From Paenibacillus sambharensis (GTDB taxonomy: Bacteria; Bacillota; Bacilli; Paenibacillales; Paenibacillaceae): DNA of 24,000 nucleotides. The stretch covers positions 83,464-107,463 of the forward strand of contig NZ_QKRB01000037.1 of assembly GCF_003233845.1 (NCBI RefSeq). Reading direction: 5' to 3'. Numbering within the stretch: position 1 is the stretch's first letter; every line of letters begins with the position of its first letter. This document shows, in pieces, positions 2,560 through 12,415 of the stretch. The translations under genes and the position numbers were made by a program. The notes beneath the pieces were generated by a model. The model saw only the letters and a program-made list of their open reading frames with translations. It had not been told where the DNA came from and made no database searches.

Positions 2560-3009
2560 CTATCCCTTACGAGCAGCGGCTGAGTAAAAGACATCACTAT
2601 GCATATGCTGAATTCTCTCCCAATTGGCGGGGTTGGTTGTGTCTGGGGCCCGGTTATCCAGAATGGCTTGATACAGGGTTGTCTTCTCCTCCAAATGAGC
2701 CACGTGCCGTTTGGCTTCTTCGAGTTTGGCGAGCGCGGCTTCTTTATGCTCCATCATCAGTTTGTAGCGCTGTGGAATGGTGGAATCCCCCTCGAGACAT
2801 AAATCGATATACATCTTAATGACTTCGATCGGCATCCCGGATTGCTTGAGGCATTTGATGCCATGGAGCCAATTGATCGATTCTTCGTCGAACATCCGGA
2901 TATTATTCGGGTTGCGCTGTACGCTTGGCACCAAGCCTTTATCGGTGTAATAGCGTACGGCATGCTCGGTAAATCCCGTGATCTGGGCGGCTTCCTTGAC
3001 CGTATACAT
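2560..3009 (-). CDS. MerR family transcriptional regulator, 149 aa
   Basis: Tracked ORF 2560..3162, trimmed to the ATG at 3009 (SD AAGGGGGA). MYTVKEAAQITGFTEHAVRYYTDKGLVP is a MerR helix-turn-helix (HTH) and a coiled-coil follows. The upstream extension of the tracked ORF has no SD. Confidence 0.85.
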   Translation of the reverse strand: MYTVKEAAQITGFTEHAVRYYTDKGLVPSVQRNPNNIRMFDEESINWLHGIKCLKQSGMPIEVIKMYIDLCLEGDSTIPQRYKLMMEHKEAALAKLEEAKRHVAHLEEKTTLYQAILDNRAPDTTNPANWERIQHMHSDVFYSAAARKG

Positions 3010-3047
3010 GTGAAATCCCCCTTGGAAAAAAAAAGAATAACAGCCTC

Positions 3048-3078
3048 TTGCCTTCGTGTAACACGAAGGTATTAAGCT
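3048..3078 (+). promoter_or_regulatory. MerR-type promoter/operator in front of the aldo-keto reductase gene
   Basis: TTGCCT (3048-3053), then the palindrome CCTTCGTGT-A-ACACGAAGG (3051-3069; 9-bp arms), then TATTAA (3070-3075, 16-nt spacer) or TAAGCT (3073-3078, 19-nt spacer). The dyad lies inside the spacer, as in MerR-controlled promoters. Confidence 0.5.
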
Positions 3079-3184
3079 TATTGTAATACAGCTGAGCCGC
3101 ATATGGGAATTTCCACTTGAAACCCCAATCATTCGGGATGCGCGGCGGCTGCTGTTATACACTTACACAGTGGGAGGAATTGCC

Positions 3185-4036
<852 letters not shown>

Positions 4037-6027: not shown

Positions 6028-6924
6028 CTACACTTTACGTACCGCAAACCAGAGTTCGATGTAATTAAGCCCATCTTTATCACCGGTCAGTTCGAACTCT
6101 AACCCGTCCACCTGTTGATAACCTGATGCGGGGAGCCATTCGGTGTAAAACCGTTTGTACAGCGTTTCGATCGTTGTTCCGAATTGATCCCACGGATGCG
6201 GCTCCGACGGAAAAATCGCCCATGTATGCGCCGGGATACTTACCGTGGTGTACCCGTCCGCGCTGCTGCCTTCGCCTTTGAAGGCGCACAGCATGTACGG
6301 AAACGTGTCCGGTTCGGTTTTCCGGTAGCTGCATACTGCATGTACGAGATGCAAATCCCGGCTGACGAACGATGGCACCTCACCCGCACACGCTTCAAGC
6401 CGCTTCACGTCACCGTTCGCATGGCTCTGCTCCCACAGCTTCGCCGGTGTCTGCGGCGCCTCCCCGCCCCCATCGACGCGGAATATCCCTTCAATGCCGA
6501 ACACTTCGAAACTTTCCTTTGTTTCAATCCTATAATTCATGGCCTCTGCCCCTTTGATTGAGATAAGGAAGGACAGACGGGGGTAAGCTTTGAGGGCTTT
6601 CCCTTCCTGACGGGCCATGGCTGGCGTAATCCCATGCAGCGCATGAAATGCCCGCGCGAACGAGACTGGTGATTCGTAGCCGTATTTCAGGGCTACATCG
6701 ATCACCTTCTCCGCCCCGCTGTGCTGAAGCTCCAGCGCGGCAAGCGTCAGTCGTCTCCGCCTAATGTACTCTGCCAGTGTCACGTCCGTAATGAACGAGA
6801 ACATCCGCTGGAACTGATACGACGAACAGCAGGCCATGCGGGCCGCTTCCTTCAGCTCGATCTCCCCAGTCAGGTTTGCTTCAATATAGTCTATCGCCCG
6901 GTTCATCCGCTCCAGCCATTCCAT
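6028..6924 (-). CDS. AraC family transcriptional regulator with a C-terminal GyrI-like effector-binding domain, 298 aa
   Basis: Tracked ORF 6028..6981, trimmed to the ATG at 6924 (SD GAGAGGGGGGA). MEWLERMNRAIDYIEANL...YESPVSFARAFHALHGITP is the AraC HTH pair. The C-terminal half (YRIETKESFEVFG...WAIF...YIELWFAV) looks like a GyrI/Rob-type ligand domain. Confidence 0.85.
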   Translation of the reverse strand: MEWLERMNRAIDYIEANLTGEIELKEAARMACCSSYQFQRMFSFITDVTLAEYIRRRRLTLAALELQHSGAEKVIDVALKYGYESPVSFARAFHALHGITPAMARQEGKALKAYPRLSFLISIKGAEAMNYRIETKESFEVFGIEGIFRVDGGGEAPQTPAKLWEQSHANGDVKRLEACAGEVPSFVSRDLHLVHAVCSYRKTEPDTFPYMLCAFKGEGSSADGYTTVSIPAHTWAIFPSEPHPWDQFGTTIETLYKRFYTEWLPASGYQQVDGLEFELTGDKDGLNYIELWFAVRKV

Positions 6925-7010
6925 CTTAATCCCCCCTCTCAAGTTTAAGTATAGGCGAGGCAGCAAACAGCTTCGCAACAATTTGTGCCCTAAAAAGTTG
7001 CGATAGCAAG

Positions 7011-7201: not shown

Positions 7202-7618
7202 CTATCTTCCCCGGCGCTTTAGCTTCGCTTTCTGTATCCGGAGCTGATATTTCCGTTCCTTCTCTTCCTCCAACTGCTGCCGACTGAACTCTTTCCGCTG
7301 TTTTTTCCGGCATTCCATCTCGAGTTTTATGGCCTCCTGGGCCCGAGTTGAAACCCCTCGCTGAGCAAGTTCCTTCGCTGCCTGGCGCGCCAGTCTTTTT
7401 GGATTGCCCCGATTCAACCGACGATGTCCGCCTTCCGAAGTTTGAGTGGCTCGTTCAATTAAGGGCATCATGATCTTCTGAACGAAGTACATGACCTCGG
7501 CATCCTTCGGCTCACTGCCAAATATGTGCCGTGACACCTTAAGCCTACTATTCTCCTCCTGCTCTAGGACACCCACCCAATACTTCATGCCCTCATCAAA
7601 AAAAACGGTAAGCTTCAT
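7202..7618 (-). CDS. yjdF: YjdF family protein (DUF2992), 138 aa
   Basis: Tracked ORF 7202..7681, trimmed to the ATG at 7618 (SD GAGGGGGAG). MKLTVFFDEGMKYWVGVLEQEENSRLKVSRHIFGSEPKDAEVMYFV plus a basic K/R/E-rich tail matches the B. subtilis YjdF pattern as I recall it. Confidence 0.75.
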   Translation of the reverse strand: MKLTVFFDEGMKYWVGVLEQEENSRLKVSRHIFGSEPKDAEVMYFVQKIMMPLIERATQTSEGGHRRLNRGNPKRLARQAAKELAQRGVSTRAQEAIKLEMECRKKQRKEFSRQQLEEEKERKYQLRIQKAKLKRRGR

Positions 7619-7621
7619 ACT

Positions 7622-7740
7622 TGCTCCCCCTCTAGCGTTACTTGGAGTGAAGGACATCCCGAGGGGGAAGGTTACTGACACAAGAAACGACAGCTTCCCT
7701 GTGCGCCCGGACTACCGACCGAGCAGTGTTTTTACACTCC
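7622..7740 (-). ncRNA. Candidate yjdF-type (azaaromatic) riboswitch in the 5' leader
   Basis: A leader of about 120 nt lies between the promoter and the yjdF-like ATG. GGAGUG pairs with CACUCC as a closing helix, and GGGAAG pairs with CUUCCC as an internal helix. A CCUUCCCCCUC tract is complementary to the SD GAGGGGGAG. This genomic context is the defining one for the yjdF motif. No covariance-model search was run. Confidence 0.5.
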
Positions 7741-7746
7741 ATCTTC

Positions 7747-7776
7747 ATTATAAAAGAGACTAGTTGAAAGCTTCAA
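7747..7776 (-). promoter_or_regulatory. Promoter for the yjdF leader
   Basis: On the minus strand: TTGAAG (7776..7771), 18 nt, TATAAT (7752..7747). Confidence 0.45.
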
Positions 7777-7870
7777 TTCTTCGGCTTTGTCTTACATATA
7801 ATTTTCCTTCCAACACACCATACAGCGCCTTCATCATTCCTTTGATACCCTACTTATGATAAGGTTTAGT

Positions 7871-7900
7871 GTGACATTCATACTATTACCACAATATACT
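7871..7900 (+). promoter_or_regulatory. Possible promoter of the NBD-LytTR regulator gene
   Basis: GTGACA (7871-7876), 18 nt, TATACT (7895-7900). This is the best sigma-A-like match in an AT-rich 300-bp gap, so it is a weak call. Confidence 0.3.
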
Positions 7901-7983
7901 GGTTGTTTATTTTCGGAAATGAAGGATTTAAAAAGATATTTTTTATATAAGAGTTAATTATCTTAGAGTGTGAGGTAGAAACG

Positions 7984-9120
7984 ATGTCATTACTTACGAT
8001 CAGTCAATTGGTAAAGAGAAAAGGAAACACATTATTACTTCCTGAGATTAATCTTGAGATTGGAAGTGGTCAATGTGTTGTGATCCAATGTAACAACGAG
8101 TTAGGGAATTTACTTATCCAGCTGCTTCTCGGTGCCGTTCCTGCTTCAAGCGGACAAGTACTATTCGAGGCGGCTGAATTGCGGCATGAATTCAAACAAA
8201 AGGCACATAAAATAGGCATATCCCTCTTAAACGATGGAATCTATAATGGCTTAAAAGTGAAGGACTATCTTACTTTTTATAAAAATCTGTATGGGACAAC
8301 AGATACGATTGATATAGTCTTGCGAAGAATAGGGCTGCTCGATCATCGAAACAGCAGGCTCTCTGCGTTAAGCTTCTCTGAACAGAAACGTTTGCAGCTA
8401 GGAAGAGCCATTATACATAATCCTTCATTCCTTATATTAGAAGAACCTGAACAGAATGTAGATATTGAGAGCCATATCATTATTCGGGCATTAATCTCTG
8501 AGCTTCGTAATGAAGGAAAGGCCATTCTGATCACAACCTCCTATCTGGCTGATGCCATTTCTATTACCAATGAGGTATACAGATTAAATGAACACGAACT
8601 CAAAAAGATAGAAATTATCGACCAGCCTGAAACGGATAACCAGACTGACAACCAACTTGTTGCCGCTGCTATTGAACAGCCTGACGATGGTGATAATCAT
8701 CTGCTTGTAACCGATCAACAGATGCCACAATCTGAAGCTGCAATTCAGCCAGCTTCGCCGGTCCAAATTGAAACTCAACCCGTTCGTGTAGAAAAAATTC
8801 CTGCTAAGGTGGAGGATAAGATCATCTTATTCGACCCTACAGAAATCAATTTCATTGAAAGCAGCGATGGAGTCTCCATGCTGCATGTGAAGGGAGAAAC
8901 ATTCCCCTGCACGTTTACTTTAAACGAGCTCGAGCAAAAACTAAAAGCATTCGGCTTTTTCCGCTGCCATCGCTCCTACATCGTCAACTTACAGAAAGTA
9001 CGTGAAGTCATTACTTGGACACGAAACAGCTTCAGCCTTATTTTAGATGATAGCAAGAAAAGCTCGATACCACTTTCCAAAGGCAAGCTTGACGAGTTAA
9101 AGACCATATTAGGCATCTAA
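7984..9120 (+). CDS. Fusion protein: degenerate ABC-ATPase (NBD-like) domain, acidic/Q-rich linker, LytTR DNA-binding domain; 378 aa
   Basis: Tracked ORF, SD GAGGT. The N-terminal 205 aa or so align motif by motif with an ABC NBD, but the catalytic residues are replaced (see findings). The C-terminal 100 aa (8818-9117), KIILFDPTEINFIESSDGVSMLHVKGETF...FFRCHRSYIVNLQKVREV...IPLSKGKLDELK, is a clear LytTR domain. Confidence 0.85.
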   Translation: MSLLTISQLVKRKGNTLLLPEINLEIGSGQCVVIQCNNELGNLLIQLLLGAVPASSGQVLFEAAELRHEFKQKAHKIGISLLNDGIYNGLKVKDYLTFYKNLYGTTDTIDIVLRRIGLLDHRNSRLSALSFSEQKRLQLGRAIIHNPSFLILEEPEQNVDIESHIIIRALISELRNEGKAILITTSYLADAISITNEVYRLNEHELKKIEIIDQPETDNQTDNQLVAAAIEQPDDGDNHLLVTDQQMPQSEAAIQPASPVQIETQPVRVEKIPAKVEDKIILFDPTEINFIESSDGVSMLHVKGETFPCTFTLNELEQKLKAFGFFRCHRSYIVNLQKVREVITWTRNSFSLILDDSKKSSIPLSKGKLDELKTILGI

Positions 9121-9148
9121 AGCTCCAAATTGTCGTACAAAACGCTGT

Positions 9149-9211
9149 ATCATTCACCCTTAAAATTGCATCATTCAACCCTTTATTTACTCTGTTTATC
9201 CTTGAAATACT
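9149..9211 (+). promoter_or_regulatory. LytTR-box-like direct repeats plus an extended -10 box upstream of the ABC operon
   Basis: ATCATTCACCCTT (9149-9161) and ATCATTCAACCCTT (9170-9183) start 21 bp apart. TGaAATACT (9203-9211) is a possible extended -10 box 22 bp after repeat 2. No good -35 box is present, which fits an activator-dependent promoter. Confidence 0.5.
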
Positions 9212-9281
9212 GCGCGGTTACGGGATTTCCTTTAATGTTGGTGCTGCAAGACGAGAACAACATCTAAAGGAGCCAGACCAA

Positions 9282-10130
9282 ATGAAATATCAGATTGAAG
9301 TGAACCAATTAACGAAAGCATTTGCTAATAAGCCGGCTCTAAATGGAGTCAGCTTTCAGATTAAGCGTGGTGAAATTTTTGGGTTTCTTGGTCCAAGCGG
9401 TTCTGGTAAAACAACCATGGTAAAAATATTAACCGCTCAACTTTTACACACATCCGGTTCGGTTAAAGTGTTCGGAAACGACGTACGTAATCTGCAGAAT
9501 CCCGAACAAATGAAACGGATTGGTATTCTTACCGATAACAGCGGTTTGTACGATCGACTTACGATCTATGATAACTTAGAGCTGTTTTGCAAGTTATATA
9601 ATGTGGATGTGAAGCGCATTGAAGAAGTGCTCGAAGAGGTAAATCTCCTTCAAGATAAGAAAACAGCTGTAAAGCAGCTATCCAAAGGCATGAAGCAAAG
9701 AGTGACATTGGCACGGGCCATTTTACATAAGCCTGAGCTTCTGTTCCTGGACGAACCGACCTCAGCTCTTGACCCTACCAATAAACAGCAAATTCATACG
9801 GTCTTACGGAAACTGAATGAGGCGGGAACTACAATCTTTCTAAGCACTCATGACATGCAGGAAGCTGAGGATCTCTGCAATCAGGTTGCATTTCTTCATA
9901 ATGGAACAATTGTAGAGCTGGATACACCTCAAAGCCTGCGAGTGAAACACGGTGACTCAACCATTAATATTCGATTAAAGAACGGTACCTCTGTAACCGT
10001 AGGTCTGGATGAGGCCGGGTCTAACGCTATCAGAGATTATATGAATAATGGAGAGCTGCTTACGATTCATTCTAATGAACCAACTTTAGGGGATATATTC
10101 ATCAAACTAACTGGGAGGGCGCTCCAATGA
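9282..10130 (+). CDS. ABC transporter ATP-binding protein (canonical NBD, DrrA/CcmA-like), 282 aa
   Basis: Tracked ORF, SD AAAGGAG. Walker A GPSGSGKTT, signature LSKGMKQR, Walker B LLFLDEPTSALD, H-loop LSTHDM. Confidence 0.9.
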   Translation: MKYQIEVNQLTKAFANKPALNGVSFQIKRGEIFGFLGPSGSGKTTMVKILTAQLLHTSGSVKVFGNDVRNLQNPEQMKRIGILTDNSGLYDRLTIYDNLELFCKLYNVDVKRIEEVLEEVNLLQDKKTAVKQLSKGMKQRVTLARAILHKPELLFLDEPTSALDPTNKQQIHTVLRKLNEAGTTIFLSTHDMQEAEDLCNQVAFLHNGTIVELDTPQSLRVKHGDSTINIRLKNGTSVTVGLDEAGSNAIRDYMNNGELLTIHSNEPTLGDIFIKLTGRALQ

Positions 10131-10837
10131 CATTTTCGATGAGAAGAATACGAGCGATTATTACGAAGGATTGGAAAGACTTATTAAAAAACTCATACAT
10201 ATTAGTTTCCATACTCCTGCCATTAGGCTTTGCAGCCATGCTATCTCGTATGAGTACGGATGACAGCAGCATGCTGAGTATGCCGATTAACCTTGCATTA
10301 GTTATGACGGGCGCATTTGTTCAAGCATCGATGATGGCAGAAGAAAAAGAAAGAAGCACCTTGCGTGTCCTATTACTCTCTCCTGCTTCAACACTGGAAA
10401 TTATGATTGGCAAAAGCGTTTTATCTGCGATTATTACGTTAATTGTCGTCATTGGTTCTATCTTAATCAGCGGAATTAACATTCCCGAACTATTTTACTT
10501 TTCTATTATGATTTTATTATCACTGATCATATTCATATCGTTAGGAACCATTATTGGACTCATCTCACGTACGGTCATGGAAACCTCCATTGTAGGATTG
10601 CCTATTCTCATCATCTTTACCTATGGATCGATGTTAAGCTCTATGTTTAATAGCCCCATTATCGCAGAGAGTATTTCTTATTTACCTACAGAAAACTTCT
10701 CATCCGCACTTGTGAGTTTACAAGGCAGCGGCGGTTTTGCAGAAATTAAGTGGAATCTCCTAAATATGCTCCTATGGGCGATTGGCTCGGTAATCCTGGC
10801 CAAATTCATCTACGGAAAGCGTCGCTTAGACAAGTAA
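10127..10837 (+). CDS. ABC-2 type transporter permease, 236 aa
   Basis: Tracked ORF. The ATGA start/stop overlap with the ATPase gene and SD GGGAGGG indicate coupling. It has multiple hydrophobic helices and the ABC-2 motif EEKERSTLRVLLLSP. Confidence 0.8.
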   Translation: MTFSMRRIRAIITKDWKDLLKNSYILVSILLPLGFAAMLSRMSTDDSSMLSMPINLALVMTGAFVQASMMAEEKERSTLRVLLLSPASTLEIMIGKSVLSAIITLIVVIGSILISGINIPELFYFSIMILLSLIIFISLGTIIGLISRTVMETSIVGLPILIIFTYGSMLSSMFNSPIIAESISYLPTENFSSALVSLQGSGGFAEIKWNLLNMLLWAIGSVILAKFIYGKRRLDK

Positions 10838-10867: not shown

Positions 10868-10960
10868 ATGAACTCTAAAACAACCAAATTTATTTTTCAA
10901 ATGTTAATGGCAGCTGTTATTACTATAGTTATTGTTACGGTTATCAAAAACTTCGCTTAA
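10868..10960 (+). CDS. Small hydrophobic single-TM peptide (30 aa), untracked sORF
   Basis: ATG at 10868 follows GCGAGGT (SD-like, about 7 nt upstream), 30 nt after the permease stop. The translation is MNSKTTKFIFQMLMAAVITIVIVTVIKNFA, with stop TAA at 10958-10960. The operon terminator follows, so the sORF lies inside the transcription unit. Confidence 0.4.
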   Translation: MNSKTTKFIFQMLMAAVITIVIVTVIKNFA

Positions 10961-11104: not shown

Positions 11105-11322
11105 CATGACCAATTCGCGGGGGCTTTTCTTTCTGCAAGCACAAGGTCGTCTCCCTTATTCCATTTTCATTTCATTTGAAGATGTTAACGGATTTTTGAG
11201 GGCAGGGAGCAGGACGCCGGGGCGCCTCTACCGGACTGGAGCTTTATGGAAGGGTGCTGATGGGTTTGCCTCCGCAGCATCTCATGACATTAGCTGTCGC
11301 ATCAATGCTGCAGCAACCTACA

Positions 11323-11398
11323 AGCTTGTGATACGGTTATCCGCGCTGTCTGTAACGACAAGTTATAGGGCCATCCTTTGCGGGATGGCCCTTTCTTT
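11323..11398 (+). repeat. Dispersed intergenic repeat, copy B (box plus hairpin)
   Basis: AGCTTGTGATACGGTTATCCGCGCTGTCTGTAACGACAAGTTATAGGG is about 80% identical to copy A by hand alignment. It is followed by the hairpin GGGCCATCC/GGATGGCCC (11368-11391) and TTTCTTT. Confidence 0.6.
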
Positions 11399-11432
11399 GC
11401 ACGAATAACCGGAAAAAGCATTCACAGCGCGT

Positions 11433-12290
11433 CTATCTAGGTAAAGACTCTTTTAAAAAGTCTCTTAGCGTCAACGGTGGTCGCCCGATCAGGTCAGCTA
11501 GAGCGTTACTGGTTTGCACAAAGTCCCCGTTACGGCTGGCTTGGAATAAACCCAAGGTAATTGCAATGCGCACTTCCGGAAGACCTTGAGCAGTCAGATA
11601 CGCCCGATACGCTTCGTCCGTAACGACCTTTCGGTCGATAGGCCTGCCGACGATATCCGATACCATCGCCGCAACTCCCTCCATGTTAATCGCTTCAGAG
11701 GCCGTTAGATTCGGAGATGGACCATCCCAGTTCTTCTCAGTTAAGATCACTGCGGTTGCTTGGGCCAAATCCGAGTGCGTAGTCCAGGCAATCGGGCCGT
11801 CCTCAGGAGCAATCAACTCACCCGTTTTGACGGCATCACCTATTAACCCAACCAATGAGGAGGCGTAAAAACCGTTGCGAAGAGACGTGTGGCGCATACC
11901 CGACTCTTTAAGCAAATCCTCTGTCGCTGCATGGTGAACCATAGGCGGAAAATACGATGTCGAAGAAGAGCCCATATGACTCGTGTATAGAACCCGTCCG
12001 GCACCGGATTTCTTTACGGTGTCAATTGCGGTTTGGTGCTGACGGAACCCCGCATTTCCCAGAACGCCGGTTGAAACAAGGAGAACCTGCGACGCGCCTT
12101 CAAATGCATTCAGCAAGCCCTCCGCCTGGGCGAAATCGCCATGACGAACACGTACGCCGCGCTCCTTCAAATCCTGCGCCTGGCTCACATCCCGAACACT
12201 GATACCAATCTGCTCAGCCGGGATGAGCTTAAGCAGTTGCTCGACCACGCCCCTGCCTAACTTCCCATTCGCTCCAGTAACGATAATCAT
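11433..12290 (-). CDS. NmrA-family / atypical SDR NAD(P)-binding oxidoreductase (QOR2/YtfG-like), 285 aa
   Basis: Tracked ORF 11433..12395, trimmed to the ATG at 12290 (SD GGTGAGAGGAA). MIIVTGANGKLGRGVVEQLL is a Rossmann motif. The tracked extension is hydrophobic junk with no SD. Confidence 0.85.
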   Translation of the reverse strand: MIIVTGANGKLGRGVVEQLLKLIPAEQIGISVRDVSQAQDLKERGVRVRHGDFAQAEGLLNAFEGASQVLLVSTGVLGNAGFRQHQTAIDTVKKSGAGRVLYTSHMGSSSTSYFPPMVHHAATEDLLKESGMRHTSLRNGFYASSLVGLIGDAVKTGELIAPEDGPIAWTTHSDLAQATAVILTEKNWDGPSPNLTASEAINMEGVAAMVSDIVGRPIDRKVVTDEAYRAYLTAQGLPEVRIAITLGLFQASRNGDFVQTSNALADLIGRPPLTLRDFLKESLPR

Positions 12291-12415
12291 GTTCCTCTCA
12301 CCCTTTCTTCTTTGTAAGAAGTTTGCTAACAATACGGATTTGTGTAACCATATATCGCATAAGTAAAAGATAAGGGATAAGAGTCCGGTCAACAATCAGC
12401 AAAAGGCCGGTTTCG

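Follow-up and report, generated by a model that had tools for sequence, protein, structure and literature searches.

The question raised by this locus of Paenibacillus sambharensis is what a set of phased direct repeats, lying between a gene for a LytTR fusion protein and an ABC transporter operon, is for, and which protein reads it. We addressed it in a window of 24,000 nt (NZ_QKRB01000037.1, forward strand, positions 83,464-107,463), whose own numbering is used throughout, and in related loci from other genomes. The sequence points to a putative regulatory site that is well supported but fairly ordinary, and that most likely switches on the adjacent ABC genes. The site itself is unsurprising because it has a textbook LytTR layout. 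The more interesting question is what signal is sensed by the dead ABC domain that is fused to the LytTR domain in the regulator encoded next to it.

The initial annotation had described two near-identical direct repeats with starts 21 bp apart, and this description is accurate: ATCATTCACCCTT occupies positions 9149-9161 and ATCATTCAACCCTT positions 9170-9183. The likeness begins 3 nt earlier, with TGTATCATTCACCC at 9146 and TGCATCATTCAACC at 9167, which are identical at 12 of 14 positions when aligned without gaps; past TTCA there is a 1-nt indel, an extra A in the second copy. Judged from the window by itself, the pair is only suggestive, and the statistics are weak. In the 24 kb, four 14-mers recur 10-60 nt downstream with 12 or more identical positions, compared with 2.6 in dinucleotide shuffles, a single repeat pair at a spacing of 20-22 is observed in the whole 24 kb where 0.17 are expected, and a mismatch-tolerant search of the window for the motif returns 10 matches compared with 7.9 expected. 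The repeats are beyond chance because of comparative evidence across related loci.

This comparison drew on 80 genome loci with relatives at 30-54% protein identity and on five closer ones at 69-98%, with an alignment of six sequences (the window and five relatives) for the close range. The gene order regulator, ABC ATPase, ABC-2 permease is found in about 70 of the 80 loci, in Bacillales and a few Clostridia. Between the regulator and ATPase genes, same-strand boxes phased 21 bp apart are present in 49 of 62 non-redundant loci, so that the conservation upstream of orthologous cassettes proposed as a check in the initial annotation is there. The boxes were scored with a 16-nt weight matrix refined on these regulator-ATPase spacers, and their consensus is TGCTCCATTCACC. 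Of 49 box pairs scored with this matrix, 41 are spaced 21 bp; 31 loci carry two boxes, 17 carry three and one carries four, and every chained box is on the coding strand. With the matrix trained on the spacers themselves, phased pairs reach 5.1 per kb there and 0.01-0.06 per kb elsewhere in the loci. A model-free test, which takes the best 12-mer direct repeat at spacings of 12-32 in each spacer, puts that repeat at exactly 21 bp in 29 of the 62 non-redundant loci, compared with 4.4% for shuffled spacers and 7% for regions of equal length upstream of the regulator gene. The boxes also vary by clade, with GCTCC in the main group, GTATC in the clade of the window, GGTACC in a second Paenibacillus clade and CTACAG in Lysinibacillus, and those within one locus carry the same clade-specific variant, as expected if the regulator of each locus reads its own boxes. 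The genes flanking the cassette are unlike among the close relatives, in all of which the three boxes of the window described below are retained; the boxes move together with the cassette.

A matrix built without the window recovers these three boxes among its top matches in the window, and they form the sole phased box pairs in the 24 kb, where shuffles give a mean of 0.09 pairs. Box 1, the distal one (TGTATCATTCACCCTT, 9146-9161, + strand, 14.0 bits), lies at about -99 to -84 relative to the predicted transcription start and holds the first of the two repeats described initially. It starts 26 nt downstream of the end of a gene encoding a complete LytTR domain, which terminates at 9120, just upstream of the repeats as had been stated. 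Box 1 is kept in the close relatives, and a third of the family has a box at the equivalent position (the three-box loci, 17 of 49). Box 2 (TGCATCATTCAACCCT, 9167-9182, + strand, about -78 to -63, 13.8 bits) holds the second repeat and is the counterpart of the conserved distal core box of the family, GCTCCATTCAnCC, in which conservation per column is 71-100% over 45 loci. Both of these repeats are real, but the initial description overlooked a third, promoter-proximal box, which is the most widely conserved of all. Box 3 (TACTCTGTTTATCCTT, 9188-9203, + strand, about -57 to -42, 11.4 bits) lies 21 bp past box 2 and corresponds to the best-conserved box of the family, TACTCyTTTCA, in which, over 45 loci, the C at -55 is conserved in 91%, the C at -53 in 98% and TTTCA in 82-98%. 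The window copy is more degenerate, with TTTA where the family has TTCA, and the related locus L087 has the canonical TACTCTTTTCATCC at the same position. The array therefore has the spacing and strand of a LytTR operator, namely at least two direct repeats of about 9 bp, 21-22 bp from start to start, on one strand. A fourth full box at the -35 position was considered and rejected: only its first bases, T[AG]nTG[CT], are conserved, 20 bp after box 3, and a T-rich, box-like remainder follows them in roughly a third of the loci. We take this element as a weak -35 and not as a box because only its first few bases are conserved.

The promoter of the ABC operon was compared over 49 non-redundant loci anchored on the last strong box. 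A TAnnnT motif begins at +45 from the start of that box in 40 of the 49 and at +66, one box further on, in six more (46 of 49 in total). In the window, the hexamer at this fixed distance, and the probable -10 element, is TAATGT (9233-9238, + strand). Five of the six aligned close-range sequences have this hexamer unchanged, L089 being the one that deviates. TAATGT is preceded by a weak -35 element, CTGCGC (9210-9215, + strand), of which only the TG at 9211-9212 agrees with TTGACA and which overlaps AATACT at 9206-9211. In 45 other loci, the G of this dinucleotide is conserved in 100% and the T in 84%, 21 and 22 nt before the start of the -10 (-33/-34), so that, given a spacer of 17 nt, the TG falls on the second and third bases of a -35 hexamer. 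Transcription of the operon is predicted to start near 9245. That the -35 is conserved as weak, keeping TG only, is as expected of a promoter that needs an activator, and it bears out the earlier view of a promoter without a good -35. A scan of 9120-9282 for canonical promoters found none, a blank that fits an activator-dependent promoter and by itself is no evidence.

On this comparative promoter model, the putative operator lies where LytTR activators are known to bind. The core 9-mer of the proximal box (9191-9199) ends 10 bp before the -35 position, and LytTR activator sites are 9-bp repeats with 12-bp spacers located mostly 10 bp upstream of the -35 (PMC6193735). The pair formed by boxes 2 and 3 is centred near -60, as are AgrA sites, whose promoters have a poor -35/-10 architecture and require the activator (PMC4227749). 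The two repeats initially noticed had been placed at the -35 location; by the comparative model, they instead lie at about -99 to -63. The extended -10 TGaAATACT (TGAAATACT, 9203-9211) proposed with them is probably wrong, since TAnnnT occurs at that position in 19 of 49 loci, compared with 46 of 49 at the position 27 bp downstream, and the part of it that is conserved is the TG at 9211-9212. A second or different promoter is nevertheless possible, because close relatives also retain the -10 first proposed, which in L083 reads as a perfect TATAAT.

By spacing, strand and position, the putative operator is of the known LytTR direct-repeat kind; resemblance to the consensus is a loose criterion. 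The family core TCCATTCAC agrees with the Nikolskaya-Galperin LytTR consensus at about 7 of 9 positions. It shares 4 of 9 positions with the 9-bp repeat of AgrA, ACAGTTAAG (PMC11039898), and the published HdrR/BrsR-type repeats likewise depart from the broad LytTR consensus (PMC6193735). The agr P2/P3 promoters that AgrA activates in Staphylococcus aureus resemble the present site in having imperfect direct repeats on one DNA face with a centre near -60. However, AgrA is a phosphorylated response regulator that contacts two repeats in dimeric form and controls the operon in which it is itself encoded, whereas the present regulator lacks a receiver domain, three boxes are present, and the region upstream of the regulator gene is box-free. 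A second comparison is with the LytTR Regulatory Systems HdrRM and BrsRM of Streptococcus mutans, in which the LytTR regulator also lacks a receiver domain and the repeats are mostly 10 bp upstream of the -35 (PMC6193735), the gap in the window being exactly 10 bp. Some such systems are linked to ABC transporter genes (PMC6193735). Their regulators are small stand-alone LytTR proteins that a co-transcribed membrane inhibitor (DUF3021 or DUF2154) holds in check. The repeats of these systems precede the operon of the regulator itself, which creates positive feedback (PMC6193735). In the window, by contrast, the regulator has an ABC-like N-terminal domain of about 210 aa, the boxes are downstream of its gene, and its membrane partner, if any, is an ABC-2 permease. 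Neither repeats at the regulator's own operon nor a stand-alone regulator paired with a membrane inhibitor, the two hallmarks of LytTR Regulatory Systems, are found here. We therefore do not assign the locus to the HdrRM/BrsRM type: it lacks autoregulation, has another membrane partner and has an extra domain.

Further parallels come from quorum sensing and from exporter control. The ComE boxes of streptococcal competence promoters and the plantaricin PlnC/D sites consist of two 9-bp direct repeats with a 12-bp spacer, located ahead of promoters in which a good -35 is missing. The ComE consensus, aCAnTTcaG, resembles the core of the present family, in which the boxes of the Lysinibacillus clade are ACAGTTCAC. 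ComE and PlnC/D are quorum-sensing response regulators working with peptide-pheromone kinases and have no ABC-like input domain. In Bacillus subtilis, NatK/NatR provides a precedent for gene arrangement, with a LytTR-family regulator controlling the adjacent natAB ABC-2 exporter (ATPase and permease). There, a kinase works with NatR, a response regulator of the classical type; in the regulator of the window, the input domain is instead a degenerate ABC nucleotide-binding domain joined to LytTR.

This regulator, a protein of 378 aa (gene at 7984-9120, + strand), comprises a degenerate ABC domain (residues 1-212), a linker (213-269) and a LytTR DNA-binding domain (270-378). Pfam identifies ABC_tran (2e-10) and LytTR (1.5e-26, residues 278-376, spanning model positions 1-97 of 98) as its only domains. 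No Response_reg match was found by Pfam. Lacking the N-terminal receiver domain with a phospho-acceptor Asp that defines AgrA, ComE and NatR, the protein does not belong with the two-component LytTR regulators. Alignment to ABCA3 and to the neighbouring ATPase reveals how far its ABC motifs have decayed. The Walker A motif reads QCNNELG-N in place of GPSGSGKTT, with the Lys and Ser/Thr absent and one residue deleted, the signature reads LSFSEQKR (vs LSKGMKQR), Walker B LEEP (vs LDEP) and the H-loop TTS (vs STH). The catalytic set of an ABC ATPase (Walker A GxxGxGK[ST], signature LSGGQ, Walker B hhhhDE and the H-loop His) is not preserved in the regulator, the family consensus shows the same catalytic-motif losses, and the neighbouring ATPase keeps all ABC motifs. 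Judged from these motifs, the ABC domain of the regulator is catalytically dead. The N-terminal domain keeps signature-like and D-loop regions and aligns to ABC nucleotide-binding domains in the PDB. In the AlphaFold model, there are two confident domains, and linker 213-269 has a pLDDT below 50; this linker is of low complexity (Q, D, E and P) and predicted to be disordered, and its length seems to explain much of the size range of the family (333-442 aa). The ABC-LytTR family has more than 1,600 members, mostly in Bacillales, the closest being from Paenibacillus tarimensis (98% identity). Full-text literature searches, with partial coverage of the literature, found no characterised member of this fusion family.

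The regulator does not appear to control its own gene. A consensus scan gives a candidate sigma-A-type promoter for it, GTGACA-18-TATACT (7871-7900, + strand, 10 of 12 matches). In the matrix scan of the region ahead of the gene (7682-7983), no box of at least 9 bits and no phased pair of at least 7 bits was found, and a phased pair is present within 300 nt upstream of the regulator gene in one of 57 loci. Autoregulation was rejected on this basis, the upstream region being box-free in the window and in 56 of the 57 loci; there is no sign of it because no boxes precede the regulator gene, which sets the locus apart from the Agr, Com and HdrRM/BrsRM-type systems.

On balance, we consider it fairly likely that the boxes are the operator of the regulator encoded just upstream, which would activate the ATPase/permease operon from about 9245. 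The regulator would be made from its own box-free promoter, for which 7871-7900 is the candidate. When active, its LytTR domains would occupy the three boxes of about 16 bp starting at 9146, 9167 and 9188. Since the boxes are 21 bp apart, which is two helical turns, the LytTR domains of several protomers would come to lie on one DNA face, and the disordered linker of about 57 residues would let these domains align head to tail. Between the array and the weak -35 there are 10 bp, so the bound regulator could recruit or reposition RNA polymerase. The activated transcript, beginning at about 9245, would contain the ATPase and permease genes, and probably a small-peptide gene as well. Against this model, three boxes are a poor fit to simple binding by a dimer. 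For these one-component LytTR regulators, a large family in Bacillota that is apparently uncharacterised, the analysis offers a concrete, conserved operator/promoter model: boxes of consensus TGCTCCATTCACC phased at 21 bp, a weak -35 that follows after a gap of 10 bp, and a -10 at a fixed position. Such a model makes the family experimentally testable and would permit prediction of regulons in whole genomes.

Other readings of the same features have to be weighed against activation by the neighbouring regulator. That the repeats arose by chance and have no function deserves next to no credence. The window-only figure (one pair observed at spacing 20-22 vs 0.17 expected) leaves room for it, but the boxes keep their sequence, phase, strand and position in loci between which the spacers cannot otherwise be aligned. 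It is very improbable, too, that the boxes are bound by a different regulator, such as a LytTR response regulator encoded elsewhere, and that the neighbour is coincidental. This reading draws on the core CATTCA, which resembles a general LytTR consensus that many paralogues could read; it would not explain why about 50 non-redundant genomes, in which the flanking genes are unrelated, have the boxes and the regulator gene together, nor why box variants follow the clades of the regulator. More serious is the question of sign, as the regulator on three or four phased sites might instead block the promoter, or act as a roadblock to read-through, until a signal releases it. A roadblock would have transcription to act on, given that no terminator lies ahead of the boxes, the start of a degenerate fourth box (TACTGC, 9208) overlaps the -35 position, and one case of repression by AgrA has been reported (PMC4227749). 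Nevertheless, we judge repression unlikely: the strong boxes lie entirely upstream of the -35, 10 bp away from it, which is the geometry of an activator, the -35 is conserved in the weak form expected for a promoter that needs one, and locus L037 has a good terminator before the boxes yet an identical architecture.

The promoter anatomy itself has an alternative in the extended -10 first proposed, TGaAATACT at 9203-9211, with which transcription would start near 9218, the boxes would extend from about -72 to -15, and the proximal box would fall between the -35 and -10 positions. AATACT after TGn is a plausible extended -10 in the window, close relatives have TATAAT or AATAAT in its place, and TAnnnT occurs at +18 or +20 in 26 of the 49 loci. 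However, the TG is missing in L083, L085 and L087, which are relatives of 69-83% protein identity, and L026, L051 (ACAGCTGT) and L054 (ACAGGTGT) have no -10-like hexamer at this position. What is invariant there is the TG that fits -35 positions 2-3 of the downstream TAnnnT. Moreover, a box within the -35/-10 spacer would block transcription, in conflict with the activator reading that the initial annotation attached to this same layout. We therefore regard this anatomy as quite unlikely and retain the start near 9245 with the boxes upstream of the -35, a placement from which we infer activation rather than repression.

Transcription from further upstream may add to that from this promoter. 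No terminator was found between the regulator gene and the boxes in the window, and a terminator-like hairpin precedes the boxes in two of 14 loci with room for one. In the absence of an intervening terminator, read-through may give a basal level and could contribute much of the transcription of the operon. An RNA element in the spacer was considered and rejected, there being no Rfam match at E values up to 1 and folding no better than shuffles (z = +1.2). We also observed that positions 9228-9241 can pair with 9259-9274, the predicted -10 region forming a hairpin with the ribosome-binding site. The pairing persists in five close relatives, with no covariation, and is possible only in transcripts that come from upstream by read-through, in which it would hide the ribosome-binding site.

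The genes behind the promoter are those of an ABC transporter, and the initial view of LytTR-type phased direct repeats in front of an ABC operon was right in kind. The first gene (9282-10130, + strand) has a ribosome-binding site, AAAGGAG (9266-9272, + strand), 9 nt before its ATG at 9282 and kept in all six aligned sequences. It encodes a DrrA-like ABC transporter ATPase with intact motifs, including the Walker A sequence GPSGSGKTT (Pfam ABC_tran, 4.6e-35; NCBIfam drrA subfamily, 1.3e-71, under the family cut-off). The second gene (10127-10837, + strand), which overlaps the first by 4 nt and whose synteny is conserved, encodes an ABC-2 family permease (Pfam ABC2_membrane and ABC2_membrane_3). 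Directly past it lies an ORF for a hydrophobic peptide of 30 aa, MNSKTTKFIFQMLMAAVITIVIVTVIKNFA (10868-10960, + strand), which recurs at 63-80% identity in L082, L083 and L088, each time called as a gene, and which is possibly a fourth gene of the cassette. A variant arrangement is seen in L057, L059, L062, L063, L065 and L077, where the pseudo-ATPase-LytTR gene (at about 3000-4000 in these loci) is followed within 0-20 nt by a gene for an ABC-2-permease-like protein (from about 4000) and there is no canonical ATPase gene. These loci resemble LytTR systems made of a regulator plus a membrane protein; upstream of them, neither the family matrix nor the model-free repeat search found convincing boxes.

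As to the input of the regulator, a tentative possibility is that its dead ATPase-like domain, serving as a surrogate transporter subunit, docks on the permease or pairs with the ATPase, and that the state of the transporter then frees the LytTR domains to act. Several clues hint in this direction: the retention of signature-like and D-loop regions along with the loss of the Walker A Lys and the H-loop His, the strict linkage to an ATPase-permease pair, the variant loci with the regulator beside a permease-like gene and no ATPase, and the long flexible tether predicted between the two domains of the regulator. In MalK-MalT and BceAB-BceS, a component of an ABC transporter signals transport status to a transcription regulator. 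Both have a regulator that is a protein in its own right and an ATPase domain with catalytic activity. By functional analogy only, reporting transport status would seem the most natural role for a fusion of a pseudo-ATPase with a DNA-binding domain beside a transporter. If this were true, more than 1,600 proteins in Bacillota would represent a transcription switch coupled to a transporter within one protein, the fused equivalent of MalK-MalT or of the LytTR systems with a membrane inhibitor.

Several features lie around the cassette. Upstream, on the opposite strand, are genes for an AraC/GyrI-like regulator (6028-6981, - strand) and a DUF2992 protein (7202-7681, - strand), which we place outside the cassette because the flanking genes differ in close relatives. 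Downstream, at 11106-11408, is a 100-aa ORF that matches no family and probably does not represent a gene. A single strong match to the box matrix, TGTTCCTCTCACCCTT (12290-12305, + strand, 14.3 bits), stands without a phased partner within an NmrA-like gene on the minus strand (11433-12395), near the start of that gene, and is probably a chance occurrence. Just beyond the 3' end of this convergent gene, positions 11367-11392 form a strong palindromic, terminator-like hairpin of 11 pairs, seven of them G-C.
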